Source: Gaiellales bacterium (lineage in GTDB: Bacteria > Actinomycetota > Thermoleophilia > Gaiellales > JAICJC01). From it: DNA of 64,000 bases. Where the stretch lies: contig DATIOK010000068.1 of NCBI GenBank assembly GCA_035473255.1, forward strand, positions 11,858 to 75,857. Reading direction: 5' to 3'. This document shows positions 15,034 through 62,733 of the stretch, piece by piece. Each line of letters starts with the position of its first letter. Position 1 is the stretch's first letter. The translations under genes were made by a program, and so were the position numbers. The notes below the pieces were generated by a model. It made no database searches, had not been told where the DNA came from, and saw only the letters and a program-made list of their open reading frames with translations.

Positions 15034-15042
15034 ACTGAGCGC

Positions 15043-42402: not shown

Positions 42403-43149
42403 ATGACGGACTCCCCCCGCGTCGGCGGCACGGCCGACGAGCACCTGCTGCAGCGCCACGACGCGACCTTTCTGCACACCGACCCGTGGCGGATCCTGCG
42501 CATCACCGGGGAGTTCGTGGAGGGCTTCGACCAGCTCGCCGACGTCGGCGCGGCCGTTGCCGTGTTCGGATCAGCCCGCACGCCCGCGGACGATCCCGCA
42601 TACGTCGCCGCCCGCGAGACCGCCCGGCTGCTGGTGGCCGACGGCTTCGGTGTCATCACCGGCGGCGGCCCCGGCATCATGGAGGCCGCCAACATGGGTG
42701 CGGCGGAAGCCGGCGGCGTGTCGATCGGCTGCAACATCGAGCTGCCCCACGAACAGCACGGCAACAGCTACGCGAACCTGTCGATGGAGTTCCGCTACTT
42801 CTTCGTGCGAAAGACCATGTTCGTGAAGTACTCCGAGGCGTTCGTGGTATTCCCGGGCGGCTTCGGGACGCTCGACGAGCTGTTCGAGGCGGTCACACTC
42901 GTGCAGACCGGCAAGATCCACCGCTTCCCGGTGGTGCTGTACGACAGCGCGTATTGGAATGGCCTGCTGGAGTGGCTGCGCGAGCGGGTCGTCGGGGAGG
43001 CCAAGTTGAGAGAGGCCGAGCTGGAGCTGCTGCAGGTAGTGGACACCCCCGCCGAGGCGGCTGGGATCGTGCGCGACTGCACGTCCGGGGCGTGCGGCCA
43101 CGAGCATCACCCGCCGGCTGAGACGCCCACGCGCACCGCCCCCACGTAG
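42403..43149 (+). CDS. LOG family protein (TIGR00730-type nucleotide 5'-monophosphate nucleosidase)
   Basis: VITGGGPGIMEAAN and PGGFGTLDELFE (PGGxGTxxE) are present. The C-terminus overlaps the convergent NlpC/P60 gene by 43 nt. Confidence 0.85.
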   Translation: MTDSPRVGGTADEHLLQRHDATFLHTDPWRILRITGEFVEGFDQLADVGAAVAVFGSARTPADDPAYVAARETARLLVADGFGVITGGGPGIMEAANMGAAEAGGVSIGCNIELPHEQHGNSYANLSMEFRYFFVRKTMFVKYSEAFVVFPGGFGTLDELFEAVTLVQTGKIHRFPVVLYDSAYWNGLLEWLRERVVGEAKLREAELELLQVVDTPAEAAGIVRDCTSGACGHEHHPPAETPTRTAPT

Positions 43150-44060
43150 TTGTCGGCGTACCAGCCGTCCAGCTCCGCGATCTGCACCACCGTCCCGGTG
43201 TGAGGCGCGTGCACGAAGCGTCCGCGGCCGAGGTAGATGCCGACATGGCCGAGGTTCTCGAAGAACACCAGATCCCCCGGCTCGAGCTGGGAGAACGGCA
43301 CGTGCACGCCGGCGTGATACTGGTCGCGGGCGACCCGGGGCAGGGCGAGGCCGAGGCGCCCGTACACGTACTGGACCAGCCCTGAGCAGTCGAAGCCGCT
43401 CGGATCCTCACCGCCCCAGACGTAGGGACGGCCGAGAAACTGCAGGCTGAGTGCGGCGGCGCGCCGGCCCAGGTCGGCGGTCGTGGTGTCGACGGGAAGC
43501 GAGTGCTCGACCGCGGCGTCGGGGTGCGGGCGCCGGCGCCTGGGATGACCGAAGCTGCCCTCCGGCAGGATCCCCTCGTCGACCAGCGCCTGCTGGGTGC
43601 GAGGGCCGGCCTCGCCGTCGACCACCAGCCCGTGGCTGCGCTGGAAGCGGCGTACCGCCGCCCGCGTGGCCAGTCCGTAGCGGCCGGTGGCAGGGAGGCC
43701 CAGCGCCCACTGCAGCGACGAGATCACGTGACCGCGGTCGCCGTGGCGGAACACCCGGGCTCCTGGTGTGCCCGCGTACTCCGCGTCAAGCGCCGCCCAG
43801 GTCAGCGGGCCCGGGACGCCGTCCACCTCGAGGCCGTGAGCCGACTGAAAGGCGCGCACGGCCCGCACGGTGCGCCGGTCGAGGAGGCCGCTGGGCGGCA
43901 GGCCGAGCAGCGTCTGCAGCCGCTGGAGCGAGCCGGCCGCCGTCGGCTGATCGGCGGTCGCGGGCGGCGTGCCGGCCGCCCGTGCCGCCGTGCCGCCGGC
44001 CACCGAGGGGGCCGTTACCACGACCCAGGCCAGGGCTGCGCGCGCAAGCAGCCGCTTCAT
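43107..44060 (-). CDS. secreted NlpC/P60 peptidoglycan hydrolase with two PG-binding (PG_binding_1-like) repeats
   Basis: ATG 44060..44058 gives the signal peptide MKRLLARAALAWVVVTAPSVAGG. There are two RAVRAFQSAHGLEVDGVPGP-type repeats. The catalytic region shows GFDCSGLVQYVY, GHVGIYLG and HAPHTG. ATGA overlap with the S8 protease stop. Confidence 0.85.
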   Translation of the reverse strand: MKRLLARAALAWVVVTAPSVAGGTAARAAGTPPATADQPTAAGSLQRLQTLLGLPPSGLLDRRTVRAVRAFQSAHGLEVDGVPGPLTWAALDAEYAGTPGARVFRHGDRGHVISSLQWALGLPATGRYGLATRAAVRRFQRSHGLVVDGEAGPRTQQALVDEGILPEGSFGHPRRRRPHPDAAVEHSLPVDTTTADLGRRAAALSLQFLGRPYVWGGEDPSGFDCSGLVQYVYGRLGLALPRVARDQYHAGVHVPFSQLEPGDLVFFENLGHVGIYLGRGRFVHAPHTGTVVQIAELDGWYADNYVGAVRVGVSAGG

Positions 44061-46261
44061 CCCACACCCCTGTCTGACTCGAACGCGTCGAACAGGAGCA
44101 CGCCTCTGGCGCCGGGCTGCAGGCCGCCCGACGGTCCCAGCATCACCCGCTCCAGGCGCCGCTCCCCGTTTCCGAGGTCGCCGACCGAGCCGGCAGGAGT
44201 GCCGTCGACCGCCAGCGTCACCGAACCGGGGCTGCCCGCCTGCCAGGTCAGATCGAGCACGTGGACGTCGTCGCTGACCCGCGTCCAGCGCGTCGACTCC
44301 CACCCCGATATCCCAATAGCGGAGGCGCGCAGGAAGACCCTGTGCACGACCGTCCGGTAGCGCAGCAGGAACACCCGGCCGCCACCGTCCCATCCGGCGA
44401 ACACGACCCAGGCCCGGCCGCCGGTCGATGTGCCGGACGGATCGAAGCTGAACCGGGCGTGGTAGCCGGACTCTGCGGCCGGCGACTGGTCGACGACGCC
44501 CGTGACAGCGCTGCCGGTCACCTTGGCGCGCAATCCATAGCCGTCACCGTCGAGCGCGGCCCACGGAGTGACCGCGAGCATGCCCGCGCCGCGGCGACCG
44601 GACCAGGCGCTGAGGTCGCCGCTGGCGAAGCTGTCCGTGAACAGGCCGGGGGAGTCCACGGTGACGGTGACCGTCTGCACCGCCCCCCAGTTGCCGGCGG
44701 AGTCGCGGGCGCGCACCGAGATCGTGTGCGTGCCGGGTGAGAGCGTGCCGACGTCCGCCGTCACGTCCTCGACCGGGGAGTCGAAGGCGCCGTCGGCCGG
44801 CAGAGCGGCGGTGGCCAGTCCCTGGCCGGGGTCGGCGCCGTCGAACCACTCAGCCCCGGTCACCGCCGACAGCCCATCGGTGGCGGTCGCGCCCAGCGTG
44901 GTTCCGGTAACCGACAACCCGCTCACGACCGGGCCGGCGACATCTCCGCCCAGGGACGCGATTGCCGCCGGCACGTCGATGCGCCCATCTCCGAACACGT
45001 TGTCGGGGCCGGGATCGCCCAGATCGGCTGCGCTCCGGCGCAGCGCAGTCTCCTGCTCGGCGGCGGTCAGACTCGGGTCGGCGCTCAGCAGCAGCGCCAG
45101 TGCGCCGGCGGCATGCGGGGCTGCCAGTGAGGTGCCTGTGGCGGTGGTGGTGCCGACCGGATCCAGCACGGGGACGTCCACGCCGGGAGCGGTCACGGCC
45201 GGATACGTGACCGCGGTGCCGCCGCAGGTGGTCGGCCCGCGGCTCGAGTCGGCTGCGATCTGATCGCCGGCGGTGGTGGCACCTACGGCCAGGGCTCCCG
45301 GATTGTTGGCCGGGCTGTAGTCGCTGGGCGATCCCGGGCCGGAGTTGCCGGCGGCGAACACGGGCAGGATCCGTGCCGCGCGCAGGGCGGTGATGTCGGG
45401 TTCGAACTCGAGGTTGCACCCCGCGGTCATCGACCAGGAGTTGTTCACGACCTGCGGGGCGTCAGTGGTGGCGGGGTCGTGGTCGGGGTCGAGCAGCCAC
45501 TGGAAGGCGAGGTGGATGGCGCTGGTGGTGGCCTGGCCGCGGTCGTCGAAGATGCGGGCCGCGATCCAGCGGCTGGCCGGCGCCACCCCCAGCGCCGTCC
45601 CGGTGGCACCGCCGGCCACCATGACGCTCATCGTATGGGTGCCGTGACCGGAAAGGTCGACCGGGGCTGCCGTGTGCTGCCCGTAGGGGTCAAACCAGCT
45701 GTTGGACCCGCCCCGCCATGCGGCCGCCAGCTCGGGGATGGTCATGTCCACGCCCGTGTCGAGCGAGGCAACCACCACGCCCTGCCCGCGGTCACCGAGC
45801 GCCCAGGCCCCGGGCGCCCCGATCGCGGTCAGGTTCGAGGCGGCGGCGCCGCCGCCCGCGTCTCCGGCGGCGTGCACGGTGATCGCGTCGTCATGCACCG
45901 AGGCGACGTCGGGACGGGCGGCCAGCTTCGCGATGACGTCGTCGCTGGCGGTCACAGCGATCGCGTTCACGATCCACAGTGGCCGCACGGCCGATACCGT
46001 GCCGGCTCGGCGGCCGGCCGCCAGCTGGTCGAGGATCGGCTGCTGCGACGCGTCGGCGGTGCTCTGCAGTGCCTGCTCCAACGCGCGCAGGCGCGCGCCT
46101 CGGGCGCGAGGCAGCCCACCGAAGTCGGCACGCTCGGTGAGCGTCACGATCACGCGGCGCATTGGCACCGGGCCGGCGGCGGCATTCCGGGCGGTGCCGG
46201 CGCCGGCCGCAGCGGTTCCCAGCAATGCCGCGGTCACCGCGAGCACGACCACGCGTCTCAC
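44057..46261 (-). CDS. secreted S8 (subtilisin-family) serine protease with one Ig-like repeat and a C-terminal jelly-roll/LamG-like module
   Basis: GTG 46261..46259 gives VRRVVVLAVTAALLGTAAAGAG. The catalytic triad is VASLDTGVD, HGTHTMSVMVAG and GTSLAAPHAAG. The Ig-like repeat is at 44657..44857 and the C-terminal module at 44060..44656; both are paralogous to parts of 48581..51973. Confidence 0.85.
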   Translation of the reverse strand: MRRVVVLAVTAALLGTAAAGAGTARNAAAGPVPMRRVIVTLTERADFGGLPRARGARLRALEQALQSTADASQQPILDQLAAGRRAGTVSAVRPLWIVNAIAVTASDDVIAKLAARPDVASVHDDAITVHAAGDAGGGAAASNLTAIGAPGAWALGDRGQGVVVASLDTGVDMTIPELAAAWRGGSNSWFDPYGQHTAAPVDLSGHGTHTMSVMVAGGATGTALGVAPASRWIAARIFDDRGQATTSAIHLAFQWLLDPDHDPATTDAPQVVNNSWSMTAGCNLEFEPDITALRAARILPVFAAGNSGPGSPSDYSPANNPGALAVGATTAGDQIAADSSRGPTTCGGTAVTYPAVTAPGVDVPVLDPVGTTTATGTSLAAPHAAGALALLLSADPSLTAAEQETALRRSAADLGDPGPDNVFGDGRIDVPAAIASLGGDVAGPVVSGLSVTGTTLGATATDGLSAVTGAEWFDGADPGQGLATAALPADGAFDSPVEDVTADVGTLSPGTHTISVRARDSAGNWGAVQTVTVTVDSPGLFTDSFASGDLSAWSGRRGAGMLAVTPWAALDGDGYGLRAKVTGSAVTGVVDQSPAAESGYHARFSFDPSGTSTGGRAWVVFAGWDGGGRVFLLRYRTVVHRVFLRASAIGISGWESTRWTRVSDDVHVLDLTWQAGSPGSVTLAVDGTPAGSVGDLGNGERRLERVMLGPSGGLQPGARGVLLFDAFESDRGVG

Positions 46262-46266
46262 GGCAG

Positions 46267-48081
46267 TCACTCCGAGGCGGGCAGTTCGGCCGGCGCCAGG
46301 GCCGGCGGCTGCCCGAGCATCGGCCTCAGCGCCCGCCACAGCAACGCGGCTGCGGCCAGCGCGAGCAGCACCTCGGCCAGCAGCGTCAGCAGCGGTGCCA
46401 GTGGCCGGTCGGACACCCAGGGCCGCCGCGGCGCCGGCCCGCCGGGGTGGTCCACGGGCCAGCGCAGCAAGGCGGTGGCGTCGGGCACACCCGCCCGGTG
46501 AACGACCACCTGCAGCGGCATCACGCCGGAGCGCGACAGGCGATGCGCCGGCACTCGCCAGATGCCGCCTGTCCGGACGGCGTCGACGATGTCACCCGCT
46601 GCCCGCCCGTCGGGCCAGCGGATGCCGACCCCGGTGACCGGGCCGGGCGCCGGCAGCCGCGTCTCGAGCACCTTCACCGATGCGAAGTTCGCACCCGGCC
46701 GGTTCGGCTTTACGGACACGCCCAGGATCAGGTCGTCGACCGCTGCGTAGCGGAGCGCCGGCGACCGGGCGACCTTCGCGGCGGGAGCGTACTGCGGCTC
46801 CCGCGCGGGGGCCGAGGCGGTCAGCATCGCCGCCGGCACCAGCACGGCCAACGCGATCGTTGTCTCCAGCGTCACCGCCAGCCGCAGCCTGCGGCCGCCG
46901 GCGCGGCGGCGCAGCAGCAGCAGGTTGGTCAGTCCCAGGACACCGACCGCCAGGAACAGCGCCGACTTCACCACCAGCGTGCGGCCGTAGACGCTCTGCA
47001 GCAGGGCGTCGGCGGAAGCGACCTGCACGCCGGCGCTGTACAGCCCGGTGATGGCGATCAGCGCCACGCAGCCCGCGGCGAGGTTCCCGAAGCAGCGCAG
47101 GACGATGCGCCCCGACCGGGTGTCACGGACGAGCAGCGGCGCCAGGCAGATCGCCGCCGCGGCCAGGCCTCCTGTCCAGACCGCGGCGGTCAGCAGGTGC
47201 GCGGTCATTGCCAGCACGGCCACGCTGAGGTCGCCGCGTGCCGCCGGAGCATGGCCGGTCAGCGCCAGCGTGCCGCACAGCGCCACCGCCATCGCAATCC
47301 CCGGCCATCGCAACCACGATCGCCGCCCGGCCCGCGGCAGCGCCACCAGCGTCGCCAGCAGGCCGATCAGCAGCAGCTCGCGCAGCGCCCAGCGCGGGCC
47401 ATAGGTCGTGCCGGTGAGCAGCGTCCAGCCGGCCGGCGCAAGCGCCCGGGGGAATGACGATGCCTGCACCAGCAGCAGCGCAATCCCGGTCACGAGTGCG
47501 GCCGCAGCCGCCAGCAGCGCCATCATCCGCAGCCGCCGCTCCAGCCCATCCAGGCCGCGGGCGCCGCGACCGGCGGCGGCCGGCAGCACCAGCAGCATCA
47601 TCGCCAGCGGGCCCAGCAGCGCGGCCACGGCGGCGAAGTCCAGCCAGCGCACCAGCACGCTGCCGGTGGCGGGCGTCGGGTCCGGAGGCAGCCCGGCTGA
47701 GGGCGCCACGTGGACGTTCCCGACGCCGAAGACCGTCTCCCCGCGGGTCGCGTGCAGGTCGTCGGTGGAGACGGTCTGCCAGACGATCCGGTAGACCCCG
47801 CTGGGCAGTTTCGGCAGGGCCAGGGTGAGGACGGCACTGTCGTGCCCGGGCACCACCCGGGCCGGGATCACACGACCCGATGCGCCGACCAGCTCGACCC
47901 GGCTGAGACCGGGGCTGACCTGTTCGCTGAACAGCAGTCGCATGGTGGGCGGCGAATGGGCGAGCGAGCTGCCGTCGGCCGGGTCAGAGCGCACCAGGTA
48001 GGCATGGGCGGACGCGGCTGCGGGCAGCGCCAGTGCGACCGCCGCGGCCACGGCCGCGACCGCTGCGCCGCGACGGATCAT
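46267..48081 (-). CDS. copper resistance protein CopC-CopD fusion (YcnJ-like) with extra C-terminal domain and TM
   Basis: ATG 48081..48079. The signal ends ...ASA|HAYLVRSDPADGSSL, giving the CopC N-terminal His. LPSGVYRIVWQTVSTDDLHATRGE is the CopC fold. Eight or more TMs follow (CopD), then a beta-rich segment and a final TM. ATGA overlap with the upstream gene. Confidence 0.8.
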   Translation of the reverse strand: MIRRGAAVAAVAAAVALALPAAASAHAYLVRSDPADGSSLAHSPPTMRLLFSEQVSPGLSRVELVGASGRVIPARVVPGHDSAVLTLALPKLPSGVYRIVWQTVSTDDLHATRGETVFGVGNVHVAPSAGLPPDPTPATGSVLVRWLDFAAVAALLGPLAMMLLVLPAAAGRGARGLDGLERRLRMMALLAAAAALVTGIALLLVQASSFPRALAPAGWTLLTGTTYGPRWALRELLLIGLLATLVALPRAGRRSWLRWPGIAMAVALCGTLALTGHAPAARGDLSVAVLAMTAHLLTAAVWTGGLAAAAICLAPLLVRDTRSGRIVLRCFGNLAAGCVALIAITGLYSAGVQVASADALLQSVYGRTLVVKSALFLAVGVLGLTNLLLLRRRAGGRRLRLAVTLETTIALAVLVPAAMLTASAPAREPQYAPAAKVARSPALRYAAVDDLILGVSVKPNRPGANFASVKVLETRLPAPGPVTGVGIRWPDGRAAGDIVDAVRTGGIWRVPAHRLSRSGVMPLQVVVHRAGVPDATALLRWPVDHPGGPAPRRPWVSDRPLAPLLTLLAEVLLALAAAALLWRALRPMLGQPPALAPAELPASE

Positions 48082-48584
48082 CGCACGACGACGTGGCGCA
48101 GCCACAGCGAGCCCATCTTCACCGACACCTTGTCCCCGGTGCGCACGGTGCCACCGTCGTTGCGGTACAGCAGGTAGTACTGGCGTCCCGCCTGCATGTG
48201 GTGCGGGAACATGGACATCGCCAGGCCGCCCAGCGTGCGCCCGGTGCGCTCGTCCACCAGCACCGGGAACGTCGACCGTGTGTGGCCGAAGGCGACGGCG
48301 CGGTCGGGATCGAGCGCGATGTAGCGCACGTCGACCATGCCGCCTGCGGCGGTCACGGCGATCTGCGAGACGCGGATGCCGTATCGGAGCTCAACCGTCG
48401 GGTTGTGCGGAACCGGCGGGTAGACGGTGGGGGCCTCTGCGCCGCGGCTGTCGTGGGCAACCAGAAACCCACCCACGACAACCGCGGTCAGGAGGGGCGC
48501 CAGCAACTGCCGGCGCATGAGGCCGCGCACCCCCGGGCGAGGGGTGCGCGGTGCGACCGGGGCGGGAGCGGTTTCAGCCGTCAT
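48078..48584 (-). CDS. small membrane-anchored protein of unknown function with Met/His motif
   Basis: 168 aa with one TM (LLAPLLTAVVVGGFLV), then a beta-rich domain containing AMSMFPHHMQ (48195..48218). ATGA overlaps at both ends support translation. No family recognised. Confidence 0.55.
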   Translation of the reverse strand: MTAETAPAPVAPRTPRPGVRGLMRRQLLAPLLTAVVVGGFLVAHDSRGAEAPTVYPPVPHNPTVELRYGIRVSQIAVTAAGGMVDVRYIALDPDRAVAFGHTRSTFPVLVDERTGRTLGGLAMSMFPHHMQAGRQYYLLYRNDGGTVRTGDKVSVKMGSLWLRHVVVR

Positions 48585-51973: not shown

Positions 51974-51974
51974 C

Positions 51975-53291: not shown

Positions 53292-53298
53292 GTCTGCC

Positions 53299-54636: not shown

Positions 54637-57600
54637 CGCTCGTCAGCCCCCAGGTCCTTCCCGGACGACGGCCGGGTTTGGTTGTCGATGTCGAAGGTCG
54701 GCGCGTTCACGCCCGACTGCGAGTTGACCGCCAGGTTCAGCGCCTGGGATCCGGCCGCGAGGTGGTAGTTGCCCGCCAGCAGCTCGGCCACCGACTGGGC
54801 GATCGTGATGGCGGCGATGAAGTGCGGGTCGCCGCGCCACGGGAACGGCGAGATCAGCGTGTCGTACGGATTCACAACGATGCTGCCGGGAGCTCCCGCC
54901 ACCAGCGTGTTGGTGCCGTCGTTTGCGGCCGGCACCGCGCCCGCCACCGGCTGGCTGGGGCCGTAGCCCTGCAGCAGCGTGTGGTGCGGGTGCAACGGGC
55001 CGAGGCCGTCGGCGACGCCCATGTCCCAGTAGCGGATCGGTGCCGGGTCGCCGGTCTGGCCGATGCCGGACACGGTGCCCGAGCTGAGATCCCAGGCGCC
55101 GGCGCGGTTGTCGTCGAACACGTTGTTGAACATCAGCGGGTCGCTGTAGTGGGCGTGGGAGGCGGGCAGCTTGGCCTGCAGCAGCGTGCTGTTGCCGGTG
55201 TCCGATAGGCCCGCCGGAGCCGGTTGGCCGTTGCTGGTGGCTGCCGTCGCCGTGGTGATGTTCTTCATCACCGTGTTGTTGTAGAAGCGCGTGTTGGTGG
55301 CGTCGTCGAGGGCCACGCCGCCGCCCTCGTGGGTCGACACGTTGTTCACGATCATGTTGTTGAAGATCGAGATCTGCGAGTCGTTGAGGGTGCCGTTGGC
55401 GTTCGCGCCGCTGGTCATCAGCAGCCGCAGCCCGCCGCCGTCGTCGTTGGCCACGTTCTCCTGGATCAGGTTGTTGAAGACGCTGACCGAGCCGGAGCCG
55501 CGCGTCAGCGTGGTCTTGGGATTGGCGGGCAGCTCGCCGGCGATCATCACGCCGGCGCCCTCGTCGTACGAGCCGTTCAGGTAGATCTGGTTGTCGTGGA
55601 TCTGCCCGCCGGGGCTGAGGCCGAAGTGGCTGATGCCGCCGCCGTACTCCGACGAGAAGTTGCCGCAGACGTCGTTGAAGCTGAGGTCGTAGTTGTTGGC
55701 ACCGGTGAACAGCGCCACCGCGCCGGCCAGGTTGGAGCCGCCGTTGTGGAGGATCCGGTTGTGCGAGATCAGCAGGTTGTTGTTGTTGTTCGAGCCGATG
55801 TTGGGAGTGCCGACGCGGATCGCGCCGCCGTAGGAACCGCCGTTACCGTCGATCACGTTGTTGGTGACGTGCATGAAGTGGGCCTGCGCGTTCACGTACA
55901 CGCCGCCGCCCTGCGTCACCGCGGCCTCCTGGGTGGGATCGCCGACCGGGTTGGGCACCGGGCCGCCGCCGTTGTCGAACAGGCTGCCGGGGAAGTCGAT
56001 CTGGTCGCCGCCCATCAGCGTGAACCCGTCGATCGATCCGGGGAAGGCGCTCGTGAACTGGCCGGTCGTGCGCGGGTACACCGACACCACCGGGCCCTCG
56101 TAGATGTTCTGGTTGCCGGTCCGGGTGAGGCCGCTGACCAGCGTCGTCCAGTCGGTGGCGTAGTTGTTGTCACCGTCGGCAGCGAAGCCGCCCTGGGTGT
56201 AGAAGTACCGGCCGTTCAGGATCGAGCCGGGCACTGCGTGCTGCGTGCCGCCGGCGGTGTAGATGCCGCCCGGGCCGACGCCCTGGAGCTTGATCGGCTT
56301 GTTCATGACCACGTTTTCGAAGTAGCTGCCGAGCGGGTTGCCGTTGCTCGGCGTATCCGGGTACACGACCACCAGTCGCCTGCCGGTGCCGGGGTTGGCG
56401 GCGTTGATCGCGTCCTGCACCGTGGCCGGTGTGGTGGCCTGGGTGTCGAACTGCTTGCCGGGACCGACCTCGATCACGGTCGGGGTGTAGTTCCCGCCCA
56501 GGATGTGGTACGTGATTCCGTCGATGGTCGACTGTGCGCCGGCTCCCGCTGTCCTGATGATGAGCTGATGCGGCGCGCCGATCCGCGAGGCCGCGGACGA
56601 GGCCGTCGACGACGACCGGGACGGCATCTGCGCCACGATCTGGTTGTCCGTCCAGGAGGTGATCGAGCCGGAGGTGCTGCCGGTAACCGCGGAGGTGATC
56701 GACACGCCGTCCAGCAGCACGTTTCCGGTCGCGTTGCCGAAGTTCTTGCCGGTGATCGTGATCGTGCGCTGAGCAGTGGTGGCGTTGTTCACCTGGTACG
56801 GGCGGCTGACCGAGAACATCTGCGGTATGGCCGTGGGCAACGTGCAGTCGGCCGGGTGCAGCGTCTGCGTGCCCGGGCCTTCGACCAGCTGTGCGATCGG
56901 CACCGGCGCCAGGTCGGCAGGCAGCGTCAGGTTCGGCCACAGCTGGAAGTTGGTGGCAGCCGTCCGGTAGTTCGGGTTGAAGTCGGCGTTGGGATGCTCG
57001 GGCGTGCCGGGGTCGTTTGCCACGAACCGATACACGTTCGGGCAGGGCCCGGCCGGCAGCGGGCAGTTGTACGAGCTGACCGACGGCAGGATGTCCTCGA
57101 ACACGCCGTTGGCGTCGGTGTGCATGGTGTCGACCAGGCGGCCGGTGTAGTCGTACAGGCCGACCGGCATGTTCGGGATGCCCAGCTTCTCGCCGTAGAA
57201 CAGCTCCTTGGGATTGCTGGAGAGCGTCAGGTCGTCGGTCACCAGGCCGTGGAAGCGCCCGGGCACCGGCACGTCGGTGAAGAAGTGGAAGTTGGGCGTC
57301 GCCGAGTACTGATCCTTGAGGGTGACCAGCTGGGTGTCGCAGATCGGCTTCTGCTCGCCCTCGTACGGGCTGCCGCCGATGTCCGCGAACCCGGGGTTCG
57401 CAGTCGGCGTCGAGGCCGGCACCGTGACGGTGCCGCCGTCGAGGCTGACCGGGCCGTAGCTGTCCTGCCCAGAGCCGGCCACGTCCACCGTGTGCAGGGC
57501 GCCGGCGCACGGATAGGGAGGCTCCTGTGGCGTGTAGGAGTCACCGGTGGCGATGTTGATGTCCTCCTCGCGCACCGGCTTGTAGACGGGCTGGTGCGTG

Positions 57601-59900
57601 ATCGGGTCGTTCGGCACCTCGACCCGCACCAGGTAGTCGCCCGGCCCCAGGGGGTCCTGGCAGTCGTCCGGGTTCCCGCTGAAGGTGCTGTTGCCGTTGG
57701 CATCGGGTGTGCACTGGGTGCCGAACCCGTAGTTGCCGTTGACGAGTGAGAACTGATCGCTCTGGTTGCCCCAGAATCCGACCTGGTTCTGCATGGCGAA
57801 GCCCTCGAGGCAGTCCTTGTTGGTGGCGTTCACGGACGGGAAGTCGGGCATGAAGTCCCAGGACACGGGGTCGCCGTTGACGTCGCGGGACGTGCAGCCG
57901 GTGGGCCGCTGCCACTGCTCCGTGGTGTACTGGTTCAGCTTGGGGCCGAGCTGGTAGGAGCCGTCGGCCGCCTTCAGGTACTGCCCCGGGTTGTTCGGGT
58001 CGGGGACGGGGGCGTAGAGGTCGACTTTGAGGCCGGAGATGCCGCCCTCGTAGTCCTCGGTGGCCATGAAGCGCGGGTCGAGCTCGTTGCGGGTCGTTTC
58101 GTACACGACCTCGCCCACGATGCCGCCGTTGGTGCCGCGGTCATAGGGCCTGATGCCCCAGTCGATGCGGTTGGACAGGCCGACCAGGTGGAAGGTGTTG
58201 AGATCGACGCCGGCGCCCAGGATGGTGGTGGGGCTGGGCTGGTTGTCGGTCTGATAGGTGACGCCCGTCGTGTAGTACCGCGGGTCGTACATCTCCTCGA
58301 CCACCCACTGGCCCAGCGGATAGGCCTCGCGGAAGATGTAGTGGCCGTTCGAGTCGGTCGTGTAGGAGGCGGTGCCCTGATCCTGCAGCGAGTTGTCGCG
58401 CGACTTCAGGGTGACCGTCAGGTTGGGGACGCCCGGCTCGCCGGGATCTTGCTTGCCGTTGCTGTTGTAGTCGTTGAAGACCGTGCCCTTGACGATGCCG
58501 AACCAGTGCGCCAGATACAGCGTTTTCATCTTGGTCAGCTGGCCGTTTCGCACCGTCGCCTGGTTGGTCTCCACCAGGTAGTCCTGGTTCTCGTCCCAGG
58601 TCACGAGCTCGTAGTCGCCGTTCGGCACGTGCTTGATGTCGAAGCGGCCCTGCGTGTCGGCGCGCTTCACGTAGACGGCCGTGTCGCCGGCGTCGATCGA
58701 GACCAGCGACACCCAGCCGTCGCTGACCGGCGGGTCGATGGCGTTGCCGGCCTCGCCGCCGAACACCAGGCCCTTGGCGGGCGGGGTGTAGGCGCGGATG
58801 CCGTTCAGCTGGCCGGTGATCTCACCCGTGACGTTGGTGTTGGTGAGCGTGTTCTGCTCGGCCACGAAGCCCGCGATCGTCTCGGGCACGCCCTCGCCGC
58901 CGCGGATCAGCTCGCCGTCGAACCCGTTCGACCCCTCCTGGTGCCAGGTGTCCCAGTCGTGCCCGCCTTCGAGGGTCGTCGTCTGCAGCCAGTGGCTCGA
59001 TGCATTGGGACCCGAGGTGGGCGGGGTGACGGTGACCGTGTAGCGGTTGGAGCCGAGGTTGCCGATCTCGATCAGGCCAGTCGAGTCGGACAGGCACTTG
59101 CCGCCGATCGTGTCGATCACCGGCTTGCCGTTGGCATCCATCTCGTAGGGGCCGACGAAGGGGTCGCTGCTCGGGTTCGGATCGCTGGGATCCTTCTTGT
59201 AGATCGTGCACAGCGGGTTGCCGTACCAGTCGGTCGTGACCTCGGCCAGCACGTCGTTGATGTGTCCGACGAAGTTGCTGAGGCCGGGTTCTGCGGGAAT
59301 GTCCCACTGGCCGTTGGTAGCGGTGTCGTTGAAGACCTGCACGCGCATCGTGGCCAGCGGCAGGTCGTACGCGTCGACCTGCACCGTCACGTTCAGGTCG
59401 CCGCTCGCGGGGACCGTGAAGTGGGTGCCGTCGATCTTCGCGGTCTGGGCGCCGGTGGCGTCGTAGGCCTGCACCGAGATCACGTACTTGCCCGGGTCGA
59501 GCGCGATGCCGTTGCTCGGGCCCATCACGGTCTCGTCGCCCTGCGTGACGATCTGGTTGACCCCAGCCGTGCCGCCCGGCGTGGAGTGGATCGAGGGCCA
59601 GTTGCACCCGTCCGGGTAGCTCGGGTTGCTGCCGCCCGCGCCGCTTGGCAGGCAGGCGGACTGCGGCTGTGAAGGATCGCCGGCGTCGTCGCGGACGATC
59701 AGATACTTGTAGTGGTCGACGGCCTGGGGTGCCGGGCCTGCGGTGACGACGTTGAGCGTGACGCCTCCGGCGGCAGCGGCGCTGGGTGCGCCGGACAGCA
59801 GCAGGCAGAGCGCGACGGCGGCAGCGCAGACGGCCGCACCGGTGGCGAACCTCCCGCGGGTGACGCGGGTCGTGCGCTGATGCCGCAATGCTGTTCTCAC
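54633..59900 (-). CDS. 1755-aa secreted protein: multiple SdrD-B/Cna-B-like (carboxypeptidase-regulatory-like) domains, IPT/TIG-like domain, C-terminal right-handed parallel beta-helix
   Basis: GTG 59900..59898 is preceded by GAGGAGGAG at a 4-nt spacing. The signal is ...GAAVCAAAVALCLLLSGAPSAAAA. An SdrD-B-like unit is VKGTVFNDYNSNGKQDPGEPGVPNLTVTL...TDSNGHYIF. The IPT-like segment is ITITGKNFGNATGNVLLDG. The PbH1-type repeats are ISHNRILHNGG, FNNLIQENVANDDGGG and FNNMIVNNVSTHEGGG. Confidence 0.85.
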   Translation of the reverse strand: MRTALRHQRTTRVTRGRFATGAAVCAAAVALCLLLSGAPSAAAAGGVTLNVVTAGPAPQAVDHYKYLIVRDDAGDPSQPQSACLPSGAGGSNPSYPDGCNWPSIHSTPGGTAGVNQIVTQGDETVMGPSNGIALDPGKYVISVQAYDATGAQTAKIDGTHFTVPASGDLNVTVQVDAYDLPLATMRVQVFNDTATNGQWDIPAEPGLSNFVGHINDVLAEVTTDWYGNPLCTIYKKDPSDPNPSSDPFVGPYEMDANGKPVIDTIGGKCLSDSTGLIEIGNLGSNRYTVTVTPPTSGPNASSHWLQTTTLEGGHDWDTWHQEGSNGFDGELIRGGEGVPETIAGFVAEQNTLTNTNVTGEITGQLNGIRAYTPPAKGLVFGGEAGNAIDPPVSDGWVSLVSIDAGDTAVYVKRADTQGRFDIKHVPNGDYELVTWDENQDYLVETNQATVRNGQLTKMKTLYLAHWFGIVKGTVFNDYNSNGKQDPGEPGVPNLTVTLKSRDNSLQDQGTASYTTDSNGHYIFREAYPLGQWVVEEMYDPRYYTTGVTYQTDNQPSPTTILGAGVDLNTFHLVGLSNRIDWGIRPYDRGTNGGIVGEVVYETTRNELDPRFMATEDYEGGISGLKVDLYAPVPDPNNPGQYLKAADGSYQLGPKLNQYTTEQWQRPTGCTSRDVNGDPVSWDFMPDFPSVNATNKDCLEGFAMQNQVGFWGNQSDQFSLVNGNYGFGTQCTPDANGNSTFSGNPDDCQDPLGPGDYLVRVEVPNDPITHQPVYKPVREEDINIATGDSYTPQEPPYPCAGALHTVDVAGSGQDSYGPVSLDGGTVTVPASTPTANPGFADIGGSPYEGEQKPICDTQLVTLKDQYSATPNFHFFTDVPVPGRFHGLVTDDLTLSSNPKELFYGEKLGIPNMPVGLYDYTGRLVDTMHTDANGVFEDILPSVSSYNCPLPAGPCPNVYRFVANDPGTPEHPNADFNPNYRTAATNFQLWPNLTLPADLAPVPIAQLVEGPGTQTLHPADCTLPTAIPQMFSVSRPYQVNNATTAQRTITITGKNFGNATGNVLLDGVSITSAVTGSTSGSITSWTDNQIVAQMPSRSSSTASSAASRIGAPHQLIIRTAGAGAQSTIDGITYHILGGNYTPTVIEVGPGKQFDTQATTPATVQDAINAANPGTGRRLVVVYPDTPSNGNPLGSYFENVVMNKPIKLQGVGPGGIYTAGGTQHAVPGSILNGRYFYTQGGFAADGDNNYATDWTTLVSGLTRTGNQNIYEGPVVSVYPRTTGQFTSAFPGSIDGFTLMGGDQIDFPGSLFDNGGGPVPNPVGDPTQEAAVTQGGGVYVNAQAHFMHVTNNVIDGNGGSYGGAIRVGTPNIGSNNNNNLLISHNRILHNGGSNLAGAVALFTGANNYDLSFNDVCGNFSSEYGGGISHFGLSPGGQIHDNQIYLNGSYDEGAGVMIAGELPANPKTTLTRGSGSVSVFNNLIQENVANDDGGGLRLLMTSGANANGTLNDSQISIFNNMIVNNVSTHEGGGVALDDATNTRFYNNTVMKNITTATAATSNGQPAPAGLSDTGNSTLLQAKLPASHAHYSDPLMFNNVFDDNRAGAWDLSSGTVSGIGQTGDPAPIRYWDMGVADGLGPLHPHHTLLQGYGPSQPVAGAVPAANDGTNTLVAGAPGSIVVNPYDTLISPFPWRGDPHFIAAITIAQSVAELLAGNYHLAAGSQALNLAVNSQSGVNAPTFDIDNQTRPSSGKDLGADER

Positions 59901-59936
59901 CGAGCTCCTCCTCGTCACAGGCAATCGAGCCTGGTG

Positions 59937-59966
59937 ACCGTAAGGTCGGAGGAGAAGCGCAAGCAA
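59937..59966 (-). promoter_or_regulatory. candidate promoter for the giant gene/copper operon
   Basis: On the minus strand: TTGCTT (59966..59961), an 18-nt spacer, then TACGGT (59942..59937; fits TAnnnT). It lies about 37 nt upstream of the GTG at 59900. Sequence match only. Confidence 0.25.
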
Positions 59967-59970
59967 GGAT

Positions 59971-59987
59971 TGTTACAACCGTGTCAC
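59971..59987 (-). promoter_or_regulatory. direct repeat GTGACA-N5-GTAACA (11-bp period) abutting the candidate -35; possible OmpR-family regulator site
   Basis: The minus strand reads GTGACACGGTTGTAACA (59987..59971). The half-sites are 11 bp apart and end 4 nt upstream of TTGCTT. This geometry is typical of winged-helix response-regulator sites. Binding is untested. Confidence 0.2.
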
Positions 59988-59994
59988 GCTTTCG

Positions 59995-61089
59995 TCATGC
60001 GACTGTTTTCTGCCGGGACGAGCGGCGGTCCTCGCGGATCGCGCCCAGCAGAGAGTCGGATGCACCCGGTTCGAACCCCGGCAGCGTGATCCGGAACAGC
60101 GCCCCACCCATCGGCGAATCGCCGACCTCGGCGGTTCCGCCGTGGGCCTCGGCGATCGCCTTCACCAGCGGCAGGCCGAGGCCCGCGCCACCCCCGCCGG
60201 CTGCGCGGCCGGCGCGGGTGAAGCGCTCGAACACCTCCGGGCGGCGGTCGGGATCGATGCCGCAGCCCGAGTCGGCAACCTCGATCACGGCTCGCGTACC
60301 CTCGGCGCGCGCCGTGATCGAGATCGCGTCGCCCTCCGCGGTGAACCGCAGGGCGTTCTCGACCAGCGCATCCAGCGCCTGGCCGATCTGCTCGACGTCG
60401 ACCGTGACCGTCCCTTCGGCCTCGATGTCGACGCGCCAGCGCCGGTCGGCCGTGGCGCCCCAGCGGCGGGCGCTGTCGACCACCAGCTCCTCGAGCTCGA
60501 TCTGCTCGGGGCGCAGGAACCCGGTATGGCCGGCCGCGGCGAGCACCAGCAGGCGATGCGAAATCCGTGACAGCTGCTCCAGCTCGTGCAGCACGATGGC
60601 GGCGTCATCACCGGTCTCGGTGCCGATGTGCGACTCGCGGATCAGATCGGCGTGGCCGCGTGCGACGGCGATCGGCGTCCGCAGCAGGTGCGACGCGTCA
60701 CGCGCGAAGCTGCGCTCGGTCTCGGCAGCTCGTCGCACCTCGACCAGCGCCGCCTCGCGGCGGCGCGCGTGCCACACCATCGCAAGGAACATCGCCGACA
60801 TCAACGGGATCTCCGTCAGCTCGTCGATGCCGGGGCCGCCGGTGGCCTCCGCCGCGTGCACCAGCCCGACGCCCGTAATCAGACAGACGACCGACAGCAC
60901 CACGGCGGTCAGCCGCAGCCCCCACACGCGGAACCCGTAGAACAGCGTCAGGCTCACCCAGATGAAGTGGAACGGGACGGTCGTCCAGCTGGTCAGGTGC
61001 CAGAGTACGAGGACGTTGGCTGCCCAGAATGCCCCCAGGCCGACGTCCTGCCAGTACCTACGAACCAATGAAGCTGTATCCGACACCAC
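59995..61089 (-). CDS. sensor histidine kinase (membrane-embedded sensor, no obvious periplasmic domain)
   Basis: About four N-terminal TMs with very short loops. The HisKA motif is RDASHLLRTPIAVARGHADLI. The HATPase_c motifs are ENALRFT, VADSGCGIDP and GGGAGLGLPLVKAIAEAHGG. The GTG start overlaps the regulator gene by 32 nt. Confidence 0.85.
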   Translation of the reverse strand: MVSDTASLVRRYWQDVGLGAFWAANVLVLWHLTSWTTVPFHFIWVSLTLFYGFRVWGLRLTAVVLSVVCLITGVGLVHAAEATGGPGIDELTEIPLMSAMFLAMVWHARRREAALVEVRRAAETERSFARDASHLLRTPIAVARGHADLIRESHIGTETGDDAAIVLHELEQLSRISHRLLVLAAAGHTGFLRPEQIELEELVVDSARRWGATADRRWRVDIEAEGTVTVDVEQIGQALDALVENALRFTAEGDAISITARAEGTRAVIEVADSGCGIDPDRRPEVFERFTRAGRAAGGGGAGLGLPLVKAIAEAHGGTAEVGDSPMGGALFRITLPGFEPGASDSLLGAIREDRRSSRQKTVA

Positions 61090-61726
61090 GCACCGTTTCG
61101 ATCGCTCGTGTTCCCACCTTGGCCCGCAACCGGGCCACGTACACGTCGACCACGTTCGTGCCGGGGTCGAACGTGTAGCCCCAGACCCGCTCCAGCAGCT
61201 CGTCGCGCGTGCACACCTCGGTCGGGTGTCGCATCAGATGCTCCAGCAACACGAACTCCCGGGTCGAGAGGCTGCATCGGCCGAGGCCGGTGTCGACCAC
61301 GCGCCGGGCGAGGTCGAGCTCGACCGAGCCGACCCGAAGCGTCCGCTCCGGCTGGAGCGCGGAGGTGGCCTGACGCAGACGGGAGCGGATCCGCGCCACC
61401 AGCTCGCCCAGCTGAATCGGCTTGACCAGGTAGTCGAGCGCGCCCATCTCGAGGCAGCGCACCTTGGTATCGACGTCGGCGATCGCCGACATCACGATCA
61501 TCCGCTGGTTGGGCTCGCGACGCAGCGTCTCGCGCATCAGCGTGACGCCGTCCACCGTCGGCAGCAGCAGGTCCACCAGCATCAGGTCGTAGTTGCCCTG
61601 CTCCGCCATCTGCAGCCCGCGCAGACCGTCGCCGGCGGTGTCAACGCCGAACCCATGCCGCGTCAGTGCGCGTGAGACGAACCTGACCATGTTTGGTTCG
61701 TCGTCGATCACCAATATACGAGCCAC
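61058..61726 (-). CDS. OmpR/PhoB-family response regulator
   Basis: The receiver domain shows RILVIDDEP and DLMLVDLLLPTVDG (phospho-Asp). The winged-helix shows LSTREFVLLEHLMRHPTEVCTRDELLERVWGY and VDVYVARLRAKV. GTG 61726 (VARILVIDD) is preferred over the ORF-track TTG at 61756, because a G-run SD and the promoter below fit it. Confidence 0.85.
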   Translation of the reverse strand: MARILVIDDEPNMVRFVSRALTRHGFGVDTAGDGLRGLQMAEQGNYDLMLVDLLLPTVDGVTLMRETLRREPNQRMIVMSAIADVDTKVRCLEMGALDYLVKPIQLGELVARIRSRLRQATSALQPERTLRVGSVELDLARRVVDTGLGRCSLSTREFVLLEHLMRHPTEVCTRDELLERVWGYTFDPGTNVVDVYVARLRAKVGTRAIETVRGVGYSFIGS

Positions 61727-61755
61727 TTGCGGAGCCCCCCCAACGTTCTGGCGCA

Positions 61756-61784
61756 ACGGTACGTGACCGATTGTTTGATGTCAA
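61756..61784 (-). promoter_or_regulatory. near-consensus sigma-70-type promoter upstream of the two-component system
   Basis: On the minus strand: TTGACA (61784..61779), a 17-nt spacer, then TACCGT (61761..61756). The predicted start of transcription would leave a leader of about 25 nt containing GGGGGGG before GTG 61726. Confidence 0.4.
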
Positions 61785-61848: not shown

Positions 61849-62733
61849 CTAGCGGAGGGATGCGACGGCTGTGCGAAGCGCCGTCGTCAGCGGCTGCACG
61901 GAGGCCACCCGGCCCTCGATCTCCTCGAGGTCTTCGACGTCGTACTGGTCCTCCCACACGTATGCCAGCGAGCCGCGCTCGTACTGGAACGTGGTCTGGG
62001 GGAACTCGTTGTTGATCAGGCGCACCAGCAGCGCCGGCGTGAAGATGCGCAGCACCGCCGCCTGGTCGGCACCGTCGTTGACCATCAGCGAGAACCGCTT
62101 GTTGAACTCGACGCTCTCGGTCTCGACCTGGCGGCTCGGCCCGAAGGCGGCCGCCAGCTTGTTCAGGAACCCGATCCCGCGGTCGGCCAGCTGCACGGTG
62201 TCAACGCCGGCAACGGCGCCGACCTCCAGGCGCAGTACCGTGTGGCGGTGCTTCACCTCCTCCGTGTACGTCTCCGTGGTCATGTGACCCTGAGCGTCGG
62301 TCGCGGTGCGCGTGCGAGTCTCGAACGTGGAGTAGGTGAAGTTGAAGATCAGCCCGGGCACGTCGCACATCGGGCCCGAGAAGCCGTCGGACGCTTCCAT
62401 CCGCTGCTTGTCCCGGCAGAAGGCGACGTCGGTCGGCAGCGGCGGTGAGGGCTGGTACTCCCAGCCGTGCTCCTTCGCCCATTGGTGCATGACCTGGTCC
62501 TTGGCGGCGCTCGACGCCTGCGACCGCAGCACCAAGTGGTAGATGACCGGCCCGGCCAGCGCCCCGACCAGGCCGACCACGATCAGCAACGGCACGGTGA
62601 AGATCCCGATCATGGCCACGACAACGCCGGGCACGGTGCAGAGGCCGAGCGTGCGATGGTAGGTGGGCCGCCCCGTCAGCTCAGCCATGCGGGCATCGCG
62701 CGCGGCCCGGTATCGCTCGCGGCTGGTCGCCAT
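61849..62733 (-). CDS. membrane protein of unknown function
   Basis: ATG 62733..62731 (MATSRERYRAARD...). There are two adjacent TMs (VVVAMIGIFTVPLLIVVGLVGALAGPVIY), then a mixed-composition soluble domain of about 210 aa. 1-nt overlap with the upstream gene. The upstream 69 codons of the track ORF are Arg/Gly-rich. Confidence 0.6.
   Translation of the reverse strand: MATSRERYRAARDARMAELTGRPTYHRTLGLCTVPGVVVAMIGIFTVPLLIVVGLVGALAGPVIYHLVLRSQASSAAKDQVMHQWAKEHGWEYQPSPPLPTDVAFCRDKQRMEASDGFSGPMCDVPGLIFNFTYSTFETRTRTATDAQGHMTTETYTEEVKHRHTVLRLEVGAVAGVDTVQLADRGIGFLNKLAAAFGPSRQVETESVEFNKRFSLMVNDGADQAAVLRIFTPALLVRLINNEFPQTTFQYERGSLAYVWEDQYDVEDLEEIEGRVASVQPLTTALRTAVASLR

Follow-up and report, generated by a model that had tools for sequence, protein, structure and literature searches.

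Introduction

Why should a member of the Gaiellales encode three multicopper oxidase (MCO) proteins side by side, downstream of a gene for a giant secreted protein and upstream of a gene for a copper-handling membrane protein? The question is raised by a stretch of 64,000 nucleotides from contig DATIOK010000068.1 (assembly GCA_035473255.1, positions 11,858 to 75,857), referred to here as the window, in which an earlier note had described a compact operon combining MCO paralogs, a giant adhesin-like protein, a CopC–CopD protein, an S8 protease and a cell-wall hydrolase behind a two-component system. The analysis reported here indicates that the three oxidase-like proteins, which we call MCO-A, MCO-B and MCO-C, are not redundant enzymes. 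The copper ligands expected of a single MCO centre are divided between MCO-A and MCO-B, and MCO-C carries none, a pattern that points to a heteromeric oxidase whose trinuclear copper cluster would lie between two gene products.

Results

Copper ligands of the MCO paralogs

MCO-A (445 residues, 53299..54636), MCO-B (438 residues, 51975..53291) and MCO-C (1130 residues, 48581..51973) are encoded consecutively on the minus strand, as are all other operon and regulatory genes described below. Matches to the Pfam families Cu-oxidase_3, Cu-oxidase_2 and Cu-oxidase fall in MCO-A, in MCO-B and in the N-terminal 470 residues of MCO-C, and these regions align with one another over both cupredoxin domains at 26–34% identity, which shows, at the level of sequence, that the three are paralogous proteins of two cupredoxin domains. 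The paralogy that had been proposed is therefore borne out, with the amendment that the genes appear to encode complementary halves of one copper centre and not a set of equivalent enzymes.

Ligand conservation was read from alignments of 69–72 orthologs spanning two phyla. Domain 1 of MCO-A carries two motifs whose ligands are invariant (72/72 orthologs for each), H159-x2-H162-x-H164 and Y-H204-C205-H206-F-E-D-V-E-H212-V-Q-M215-G-M217, and so holds a complete type-1 site (His-Cys-His-Met: H159, C205, H212, M215/M217) together with four histidines of the trinuclear cluster (H162, H164, H204 and H206); domain 2 has no HxH motif. In MCO-B, domain 1 is devoid of ligands, with YESGT in place of YHCH, and domain 2 keeps H302-P-H304 and H409-S-H411 in 69/69 and 68/69 orthologs, respectively. 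MCO-C has neither a conserved HxH pair nor a conserved Cys ligand, and type-1 ligands, absent from MCO-B and MCO-C, are confined to MCO-A. Pairwise alignment places the losses reciprocally: HTIHWHG of MCO-A faces TSIVFPG of MCO-B, YHCH faces YESG, and FHPHG of MCO-B faces ITLPG of MCO-A. This ITLPG segment aligns in turn with the domain-2 HTHG of the two-domain MCO 3g5w, to which the HPH of MCO-B corresponds via MCO-A; 3g5w and 2zwn, both two-domain MCOs, are the best PDB sequence matches to MCO-A. None of the three chains holds all eight trinuclear histidines. Because MCO-A and MCO-B together supply exactly the canonical twelve ligands, and because no single protein can form the eight-histidine cluster, we infer a heteromeric oxidase.

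Alternatively, MCO-A, MCO-B and MCO-C may act separately, as copper-binding or structural cupredoxins of the FtsP/SufI kind; the cluster would then be a loose assortment of secreted proteins, and decay would account for the ligand pattern. Copper-free MCO-like proteins such as FtsP/SufI do exist, the assembly of the three paralogs is itself a deduction, and MCO-A and MCO-B use different export signals: MCO-A has a signal of the twin-arginine translocation (Tat) type, with the twin-arginine motif found in 70/81 cases, and MCO-B, MCO-C and the giant protein have Sec-type signals. Decay, however, would not be expected to keep exactly 12 ligands invariant in complementary halves over two phyla, and MCO-A on its own, with a type-1 site wired through His-Cys-His to half a cluster, would be non-functional. 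The strict co-occurrence and gene order of the paralogs and the existence of B::C fusions, both set out below, further reduce the appeal of this explanation, to which we assign only a slim chance.

In-frame B::C open reading frames (ORFs) are present in two metagenomic lineages, at L087:1961-4615 (884 residues) and L088:5246-8716 (1156 residues), and in both the surrounding genes are those for the giant protein, MCO-A, B::C, a small protein and the CopC–CopD protein. The B-type motifs are confined to the B part of the fusions, the ligands of the partner MCO-A are intact, and the C part is without the long tail of immunoglobulin-like (Ig-like) repeats. Fusions of this kind support an association of the subunits, without fixing its geometry. 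Apparent A::B and some other B::C fusions (P0364, P0317, P0318 and P0413) were rejected as frameshift read-throughs because their junction regions are garbled; the only fusions accepted among library representatives, after a check of the DNA, are P0286 and P0288.

The type-1 loop of MCO-A (YHCHFEDVEHVQMGM; residues 204-217, window 54013-54027, minus strand) is fully invariant in the 72 orthologs. Its acidic residues E208, D209 and E211 have no counterpart in the two-domain oxidase 3g5w and may form a cation-binding substrate site. The histidine that opens domain 2 is invariant in MCO-A (H266) and MCO-B (H223) and is replaced by asparagine in MCO-C; a second invariant histidine, H271, occurs in MCO-A only (window 53824-53841), and neither H266 nor H271 is a canonical copper ligand. 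A different architecture of the MCO-C family may be represented by P0379 (696 residues), which consists of two tandem copper-ligand-free MCO-C-like modules and has an end resembling a dockerin-type repeat (DINRDGRVSMTDALKAARIVVGL).

Beyond its cupredoxin module, MCO-C continues in a tail of ~650 residues made up of Ig-like repeats and a C-terminal module. The C-terminal 274 residues of MCO-C and of the S8 subtilase encoded further downstream (734 residues, 44057..46261; Pfam Peptidase_S8) are 47% identical (window 48584-49405 and 44060-44866, minus strand), far above expectation for unrelated proteins. The shared segment comprises one Ig-like repeat and a domain without Pfam match; Pfam searches with this module, with an insertion in MCO-C and with the C-terminal domain of the CopC–CopD protein gave no credible matches. 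The sharing therefore suggests a common targeting module, and with it a docking target common to MCO-C and the protease, the catalytic triad of which is intact (DTG, HGT and GTS motifs).

Conservation of the cluster

Relatives were collected by scanning one genome per species with the MCO-B alignment. The scan matched 183 genomes, from which 80 loci were fetched (15 from Chloroflexota, the remainder from Actinomycetota), and ten window proteins were compared by tblastn with 84 related loci. MCO-A, MCO-B and MCO-C were each matched in 84/84 loci, and wherever the contig permits (84/84 loci) the genes follow the order giant protein, MCO-A, MCO-B, MCO-C, small membrane protein (p168 in the window) and CopC–CopD fusion (CopCD). 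The giant protein (77/84), p168 (78/84, always between MCO-C and CopCD) and CopCD (74/84) are absent solely at contig ends, and order and strand are invariant. By the same comparison the response regulator lies beside the core in 56/84 loci and the histidine kinase in 53/84; clustering places the regulator in 62 loci. The S8 protease has true orthologs, 41–64% identical and located downstream of CopCD, in 18/84 loci, which belong to Chloroflexota, Gaiellales and Nonomuraea apart from one further locus. For the NlpC/P60 hydrolase the count is 0/84; its gene is present in the 98%-identical contig L085. Clustering of flanking ORFs over 81 loci revealed no recurring genes other than the regulator and the kinase. 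On the strength of these counts, the conserved system consists of six genes and a two-component system, to which the S8 and NlpC/P60 genes are lineage-specific additions. Of the genes that the earlier note had grouped together, then, the six-gene core and its regulatory pair are conserved as a unit, and the two terminal hydrolase genes are not.

Relatives of MCO-A number in the thousands, and the best 120 (48–98% identical, ~420–450 residues) come from Actinomycetota and Chloroflexota. For MCO-B, 245 relatives (clusters at 50% identity, E<=1e-30) were found in a library of 1.84 billion representatives. Hosts include Kribbella, Terrabacter, Micromonospora, Amycolatopsis and Ktedonobacterales. 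The order of the genes matches in three neighbourhoods that were inspected, those of Micromonospora auratinigra, another Gaiellales metagenome-assembled genome (MAG) and a Chloroflexi MAG, and the gaps between the A, B and C genes measure 10–20 nt in Micromonospora and another Gaiellales genome. Since the same order and spacing recur in distant genomes, the tight arrangement is more than chance. At most of the Chloroflexota loci (L004-L011, L014, L018, L040 and L074) the S8 gene is present and the regulator and kinase are not adjacent; at L004 a gene for a helix-turn-helix-type regulator lies upstream instead of the two-component system.

The giant protein

The gene for the giant secreted protein (1755 residues, 54633..59900) begins with GTG behind the ribosome-binding site GAGGAGGAG. 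The protein combines a signal peptide with prealbumin/CnaB-like domains, a central region that is itself conserved, a TIG domain and, at the C terminus, a right-handed beta-helix. Pfam detects SdrD_B and TIG in the window protein, and SdrD_B, CarboxypepD_reg, fn3_3 and TIG in its orthologs, with fn3_3 and CarboxypepD_reg in 23/24 of them. Beta_helix is matched in 17/24 orthologs and, at E<=0.1, not in the window protein itself; a match to NosD is weak (5/24 orthologs, best E-value 5.8e-4) and does not establish NosD membership. Neither Pfam nor NCBIfam has a family for the central part, and a PDB sequence search returned nothing useful. In an AlphaFold2 model of residues 556–1755, with a predicted local distance difference test score (pLDDT) of 79.6, model residues 780–1160 form regular short strands, which we read as a probable beta-helix. 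Foldseek searches with the model recovered CnaB/SpaA pilin domains and beta-helix carbohydrate-active enzymes, namely GH136 lacto-N-biosidase LnbX, the polysaccharide lyase RbmB, a GH87 glucanase and a phage depolymerase; the fold matches are moderate (TM-score 0.4–0.46 on target, 10–12% identity).

Identity of the giant protein across two phyla is 44–53%, falling to 40% in one Chloroflexia locus, so that it is as conserved as the oxidase subunits, and many Cys, Gly, Asp and Trp residues are invariant. Sortase and heme motifs are absent from it, as are metal-rich stretches. The designation adhesin-like suits it poorly, given the cross-phylum conservation, the many invariant residues and the missing sortase motif, and its degree of conservation argues for an obligate subunit as opposed to a variable adhesin.

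The fold matches lend themselves to a further reading, namely an oxidative, polymer-modifying surface complex. The giant beta-helix protein would bind or cleave a glycan or lignin–carbohydrate polymer, either environmental or belonging to the cell's own wall or matrix, and the oxidase would contribute chemistry of a phenolic or radical kind, such as cross-linking or depolymerisation. This proposal overlaps the one that we favour in the Discussion; the differences are confined to the electron donor and to a catalytic role for the giant protein. It would accord with the nature of the enzymes matched by the beta-helix, with the near-universal presence among orthologs of CarboxypepD_reg and of fn3_3 (domain II of polysaccharide lyase family 4), with the soil-saprophytic habit of the hosts, and with the wall hydrolase and protease added in this lineage. 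Yet the moderate fold matches come without mapped catalytic residues, no CAZy-type Pfam family was matched, and no sugar transporters or other polymer-degrading genes recur nearby. Moreover, one active centre per ~200-kDa oxidase would be costly for bulk attack on a polymer. On balance, we regard the proposal as unlikely.

Copper handling

CopCD (604 residues, 46267..48081) unites CopC and CopD in one chain, with matches of 65.6 and 50.3 bits to the respective Pfam families, both above the gathering scores; it scores below the NCBIfam equivalog cut-offs for CopC and CopD. An extra C-terminal domain and a final membrane helix follow. The Cu(II) site of CopC is kept in 66/67 orthologous sequences, as the mature N-terminal histidine H26 after the signal peptide and the D-D-L-H110 motif, and in the CopD part H277 and H295, candidates for a copper site in the membrane domain, are invariant (67/67). 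A YtkA domain was not matched by Pfam in residues 430–604 at E<=5.

Between MCO-C and CopCD lies p168 (168 residues, 48078..48584), which is predicted to have one membrane helix and a small beta-sandwich in an AlphaFold2 model of pLDDT 77.6, computed from only 10 sequences. It has no sequence match in Pfam, NCBIfam or PDB, and a fold search produced no significant match, with generic Ig-like folds only (best E-value 0.04). The earlier note had listed a CopC–CopD pair and a Met/His protein in the operon: the former is present, whereas p168 is not a conserved Met/His protein, keeping only H128 and H164. A role for p168 as a copper chaperone was considered and rejected, there being two conserved histidines only, no support from Pfam, NCBIfam or PDB, and fold matches at E>=0.04.

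These proteins bear on whether copper is supplied or removed. YcnJ, of CopC-CopD-YtkA architecture, is a copper importer that supports cuproenzyme assembly (PMC13344008), and supply to the oxidase rather than detoxification is plausible for CopCD. The contrary proposal is a copper-stress system for detoxification or sequestration, a monoderm counterpart of copABCD-copRS/pco, in which Cu(I) would be oxidised to Cu(II) at the surface, CopC and CopD would handle the copper, the regulator and kinase would sense its excess, and the acidic giant protein would bind metal. The locus does share with cop/pco a functional parts list of MCO, CopC, CopD and two-component system; the loop beside the type-1 histidine is invariantly acidic, and the giant protein is likewise acidic (D+E 9.6% vs K+R 4.7%). 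However, Met-, His- and Cys-rich stretches are absent from all of the proteins, Met amounting to 1.3–2.5% in the giant protein and the MCOs, and motif searches of every operon product found no heme, sortase or Met/His-rich motif. The cluster also lacks a P-type ATPase, CopZ and CsoR; CopC-CopD proteins of the YcnJ type import copper under starvation (PMC13344008); and a highly conserved partner of 1755 residues would make an expensive copper sponge.

Two-component system and putative operator

The regulatory genes bear on the same proposal. An OmpR/PhoB-family response regulator (222 residues, 61058..61726; Response_reg and Trans_reg_C) and a histidine kinase (59995..61089; HisKA and HATPase_c) lie upstream of the operon on the same strand, as had been described, and the start of the kinase gene overlaps the end of the regulator gene. 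The best NCBIfam match of the regulator is the heavy-metal family TIGR01387, in keeping with copper stress, yet its 192 bits fall short of the cut-off of 279; the kinase scores 100 bits against TIGR01386 (cut-off 292). By reading of its sequence, the kinase has about four N-terminal membrane helices, of which a hydrophobicity scan at threshold flags one segment, and is without an extracytoplasmic sensor domain, unlike CusS/CopS with their periplasmic one.

Three direct repeats at 11-bp spacing (aTGACG, gTGACA and gTAACA; 59971..59997, minus strand), found by pattern scan, constitute a putative operator. The boxes lie at 59997, 59986 and 59975, in the interval that separates the kinase stop codon from the giant gene, and the first overlaps that stop codon. 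Across the 64 kb, the pattern TGACR-N6-TGACR-N6-TRACR has a single match (0.00 expected). Among loci with the two-component system, 29/48 have same-strand TGACR pairs at 11 bp upstream of the giant gene (34 pairs), compared with 0.1 loci in shuffles and 0-2 pairs at other spacings from 6 to 16 bp, and ATGAC(A/G)G is enriched in the intergenic region where the two-component system diverges from the giant gene. The 11-bp-phased TGACR array is thus probably the operator of the regulator. Repeats of ~11-bp period, a receiver/winged-helix regulator and a HisKA/HATPase_c kinase are together what is expected of the OmpR/PhoB family. Of the 21 loci that lack the two-component system, 5 also have the 11-bp TGACR repeats.

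The repeat unit ATGACAG is the reverse complement of CTGTCAT, which we take to be the core of the Pho box, likewise with an 11-bp period. TGACA-type half-sites also resemble the Pseudomonas aeruginosa CopR consensus CTGACAn5GTAAT and the Escherichia coli CusR box (bioRxiv 10.1101/2023.09.26.559466), a resemblance that speaks for copper stress. Naming the signal of the regulator from the operator was nonetheless rejected: the motif does not reveal it, because the half-site resembles the CusR/CopR boxes and the presumed Pho box alike. The regulator score below the family cut-off, the kinase without the CusS/CopS sensor domain and the ambiguous operator count against copper stress, which, on the evidence as a whole, we consider a rather improbable purpose for the locus.

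Just downstream of the repeats, sequence and position suggest a possible promoter of the giant operon (TTGCTT, 18-nt spacer, TACGGT; 59937..59966, minus strand). Repeats and possible promoter both lie in the 94-nt gap after the kinase gene, and the operon therefore probably has its own regulator-dependent promoter; it does stand behind the two-component system, as the earlier note put it, with a putative operator and probable promoter of its own in between. For the regulator and kinase genes, direct reading gives a putative promoter at 61756..61784 on the minus strand, composed of TTGACA (61784..61779), a 17-nt spacer and TACCGT (61761..61756). It had been called near-consensus, which is apt for the perfect -35 element and less so for the -10, which has only TAnnnT; a sigma-70 consensus scan did not report the promoter. 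Directly upstream of it is an ORF of ~295 residues (61849-62736, minus strand) with predicted membrane helices and no Pfam family.

Operon layout and genomic context

ORF listing and translation confirmed the coordinates of eight consecutive minus-strand genes from 59900 down to 43107, and direct reading confirmed all seven tight junctions in the positions claimed for them. Four are ATGA overlaps (giant/MCO-A, MCO-C/p168, p168/CopCD and S8/NlpC); the others are gaps of 7 nt between MCO-A and MCO-B (TGA GGCAGAC GTG), 1 nt between MCO-B and MCO-C and 5 nt between CopCD and S8. The last gene encodes an NlpC/P60 peptidoglycan hydrolase of 317-318 residues with two PG_binding_1 repeats (43107..44060), an accessory of this lineage like the S8 subtilase. 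Pfam bears out the domain calls made for the locus (Cu-oxidase in MCO-A, MCO-B and MCO-C, CopC with CopD, Peptidase_S8, NLPC_P60 with PG_binding_1, and the regulator/kinase pair at 61726..59995), and a tightly coupled operon behind a two-component system is supported. In metagenome contig L085, 98% identical, gene lengths match from MCO-A through the terminal NlpC/P60 gene.

A terminator scan found no convincing terminator at any gene boundary of the operon. On the minus strand it gave three weak matches, with stems at 61270..61256 and 60806..60793 (in the regulator and kinase genes) and at 52959..52947 (in MCO-B), all of them intragenic, with 5-6 stem pairs each and a poor T-tail; both strands together gave 11 terminator-like matches against 5.6 +/- 2.7 expected. 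A search of Rfam for riboswitches and leader RNAs matched a single element in the window, a tRNA located elsewhere.

The G+C content of the window is ~70%, and the region is chromosomal, with neighbouring genes for SecDF, RecJ, RelA/SpoT, CorA and a LOG-family protein. SecD and SecF are encoded as a single fused protein of 899 residues (window 15034-17733, plus strand). The LOG-family (Lysine_decarbox) gene (42403-43149, plus strand) converges on the NlpC/P60 gene, their 3' ends overlapping by 43 nt, and no terminator-like site was found between the two. Along the plus strand from 50001 to 60000, which covers the giant and MCO genes, a sustained GC skew of +0.08 to +0.11 and an AT skew down to -0.19 are the strongest in the window, and presumably reflect the amino-acid composition of the giant and MCO proteins.

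Discussion

The explanation that we favour, with moderate confidence, is that monoderm soil bacteria use this locus to make a dedicated extracytoplasmic oxidase machine, with a heteromeric MCO core, its own copper supply and its own regulator, working together with the giant protein. In such a machine, MCO-A, MCO-B and MCO-C would come together on the outer side of the membrane, their six cupredoxin domains forming a pseudo-threefold ring similar to the trimer of a two-domain MCO, with one type-1 copper in MCO-A and one trinuclear cluster at the interface of MCO-A domain 1 and MCO-B domain 2. A donor would deliver electrons to the type-1 site, and the Cys205-His dyad would relay them to the trinuclear cluster, where O2 would be reduced to water. 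MCO-C would close the ring, and its Ig-like arm and C-terminal module would be the means by which the enzyme attaches to a partner or the cell wall. The giant protein would be the obligate partner, serving as scaffold or as a substrate-presenting, possibly glycan-binding, subunit. CopCD, and perhaps the membrane-anchored p168, would provide copper for assembly; in this lineage, the S8 protease, which bears the putative targeting module of MCO-C, and the peptidoglycan hydrolase would assist maturation or passage through the wall; and the adjacent regulator would bind the 11-bp-phased TGACR repeats and drive the operon. The tight translational coupling fits co-produced subunits of one complex.

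As to the electron donor, a metal cation (Cu(I), Fe(II) or Mn(II)) held at the FEDVE loop is our tentative first guess, because this loop, next to the type-1 histidine, is both invariant and acidic. A phenolic or humic substrate ranks next, as a possibility that we are somewhat less inclined to accept.

Several points weigh against this explanation. The heterotrimer, its stoichiometry and the order of its ring are argued by analogy with the trimers of two-domain MCOs, and the spatial clustering of the four histidines of MCO-B would follow from motif homology. The two MCO-B motifs are 107 residues apart, longer than is usual, a spacing that we attribute to a candidate insertion between them. 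Export of MCO-A by Tat and of MCO-B and MCO-C by Sec means that assembly of the shared cluster would have to await export. A copper-stress system would also account for a CopC/CopD protein and a CopR/CusR-type regulator, and physical binding of the giant protein to the oxidase is a supposition.

Should the oxidase machine be real, it would be the first natural MCO with its trinuclear cluster between two gene products, in which a copper-free third paralog completes a six-domain ring. Permanent companions of that ring would be the conserved beta-helix protein of 185 kDa, a dedicated copper importer and a regulator belonging to the system. The whole would represent a previously unrecognised class of cell-surface oxidase, spread over no fewer than 183 sequenced species of soil-dwelling Actinomycetota and Chloroflexota; whether all this holds is, in our view, an evenly balanced question. 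Such an enzyme would also offer a natural test case for the assembly of an intersubunit copper cluster outside the cell. The system is found in many genera of soil bacteria and, depending on its substrate, could matter for the oxidation of metals or organic matter in soils. A giant protein of 1755 residues with 100% identity is already on record; an exact look-up of MCO-A returned no entry. A Gaiellales (Actinomycetota) MAG supplies further members of the 90%-identity clusters concerned, and for its proteins, as in public records generally, the only names are 'SdrD B-like domain-containing', 'multicopper oxidase domain-containing' and 'hypothetical'. Metagenome surveys that count each of the three MCO genes as a 'laccase-like' enzyme are likely to be wrong.

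Comparison with known systems

Searches of Pfam, NCBIfam, PDB and the literature yielded no characterised system of this architecture, and the literature searched contains no description of a heteromeric MCO or of this system. In agreement with the earlier note, the locus does not match copABCD/pco, cue or cus: the three MCOs score 48.6, 41.0 and 17.8 bits against copper_res_A (TIGR01480), for which the cut-off is 479. Like copABCD-copRS and pcoABCDRS, it brings together an MCO, CopC, CopD and an OmpR-type two-component system, and has TGACA-type half-sites. It departs from them in lacking, as had been claimed, a three-domain Met-rich CopA/PcoA (Met being at the low level given above), CopB and a P-type ATPase; no ORF or domain for a CopB/PcoB outer-membrane protein was detected in the operon or its flanks. 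In addition, CopC and CopD are fused here, the kinase has no periplasmic sensor, and the giant protein and p168 are extra. CopCD itself is closer to YcnJ of Bacillus subtilis, in which an extracellular CopC domain with a Cu(II) site is likewise fused to a CopD membrane domain, and the CopC ligand residues are conserved here. It differs from YcnJ in a C-terminal domain without YtkA match and in its partner, which is an MCO operon and not respiratory oxidases, and no YcnI or YcnK homolog was detected.

For a copper-free MCO-C, FtsP/SufI offers a precedent, as a three-domain, Tat-exported cell-division protein with an MCO fold that has lost its copper ligands and plays a non-catalytic role. MCO-C, in contrast to FtsP, joins a two-domain module to a long Ig-like tail and is encoded beside ligand-bearing paralogs. 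A heteromeric MCO complex at the bacterial surface is known in Mnx of Bacillus spores, where MnxG and MnxE/MnxF are encoded in one operon. The likeness to an A-B-C assembly is limited to being heteromeric: all catalytic copper ligands of Mnx lie in MnxG, its accessory subunits are small and unrelated, and, unlike the six-domain MnxG, no chain here exceeds two cupredoxin domains.

The closest relatives are the two-domain MCOs 3G5W (Nitrosomonas europaea blue copper oxidase) and 2ZWN (metagenomic mgLAC). Two-domain MCOs with the type-1 site in domain 1 are designated 'type C'. As in 3G5W and 2ZWN, each chain here has two cupredoxin domains, and MCO-A holds the type-1 copper and half of the trinuclear ligands in domain 1. 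In known two-domain MCOs, which are homotrimers, every chain has all four HxH motifs, and the trimer has three active centres. The present locus distributes the ligands between two gene products and leaves the third paralog without any, so that an assembly would contain at most one centre; MCO-C further adds its tail of ~650 residues. In the structure of the two-domain MCO Nmar_1354 the trinuclear cluster is located at the subunit interface (PMC11761707), and the only 'heterotrimer' in the literature searched is a proteolytic alpha-alpha-alpha' form of a homotrimer (PMC11761707). Because a complete single-chain ligand set is found in none of them, MCO-A, MCO-B and MCO-C should not be filed as two-domain MCO enzymes. 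To our knowledge, every other MCO, whether laccase, CueO/CopA, two-domain trimer, ceruloplasmin or MnxG, has the complete set in one polypeptide.

In ceruloplasmin, six cupredoxin domains form a ring in which one interface holds the only trinuclear cluster, and the proposed A-B-C assembly would have the same copper economy as six-domain MCOs of this type. Ceruloplasmin is, however, a eukaryotic protein of one polypeptide with three type-1 sites, as opposed to three chains here (two where B and C are fused) and one type-1 site. If the A-B-C assembly is correct, it would bridge, as a living intermediate, the homotrimeric two-domain oxidases and the single-centre, six-domain enzymes of the ceruloplasmin type, and would show how homotrimers can evolve into asymmetric single-centre rings.

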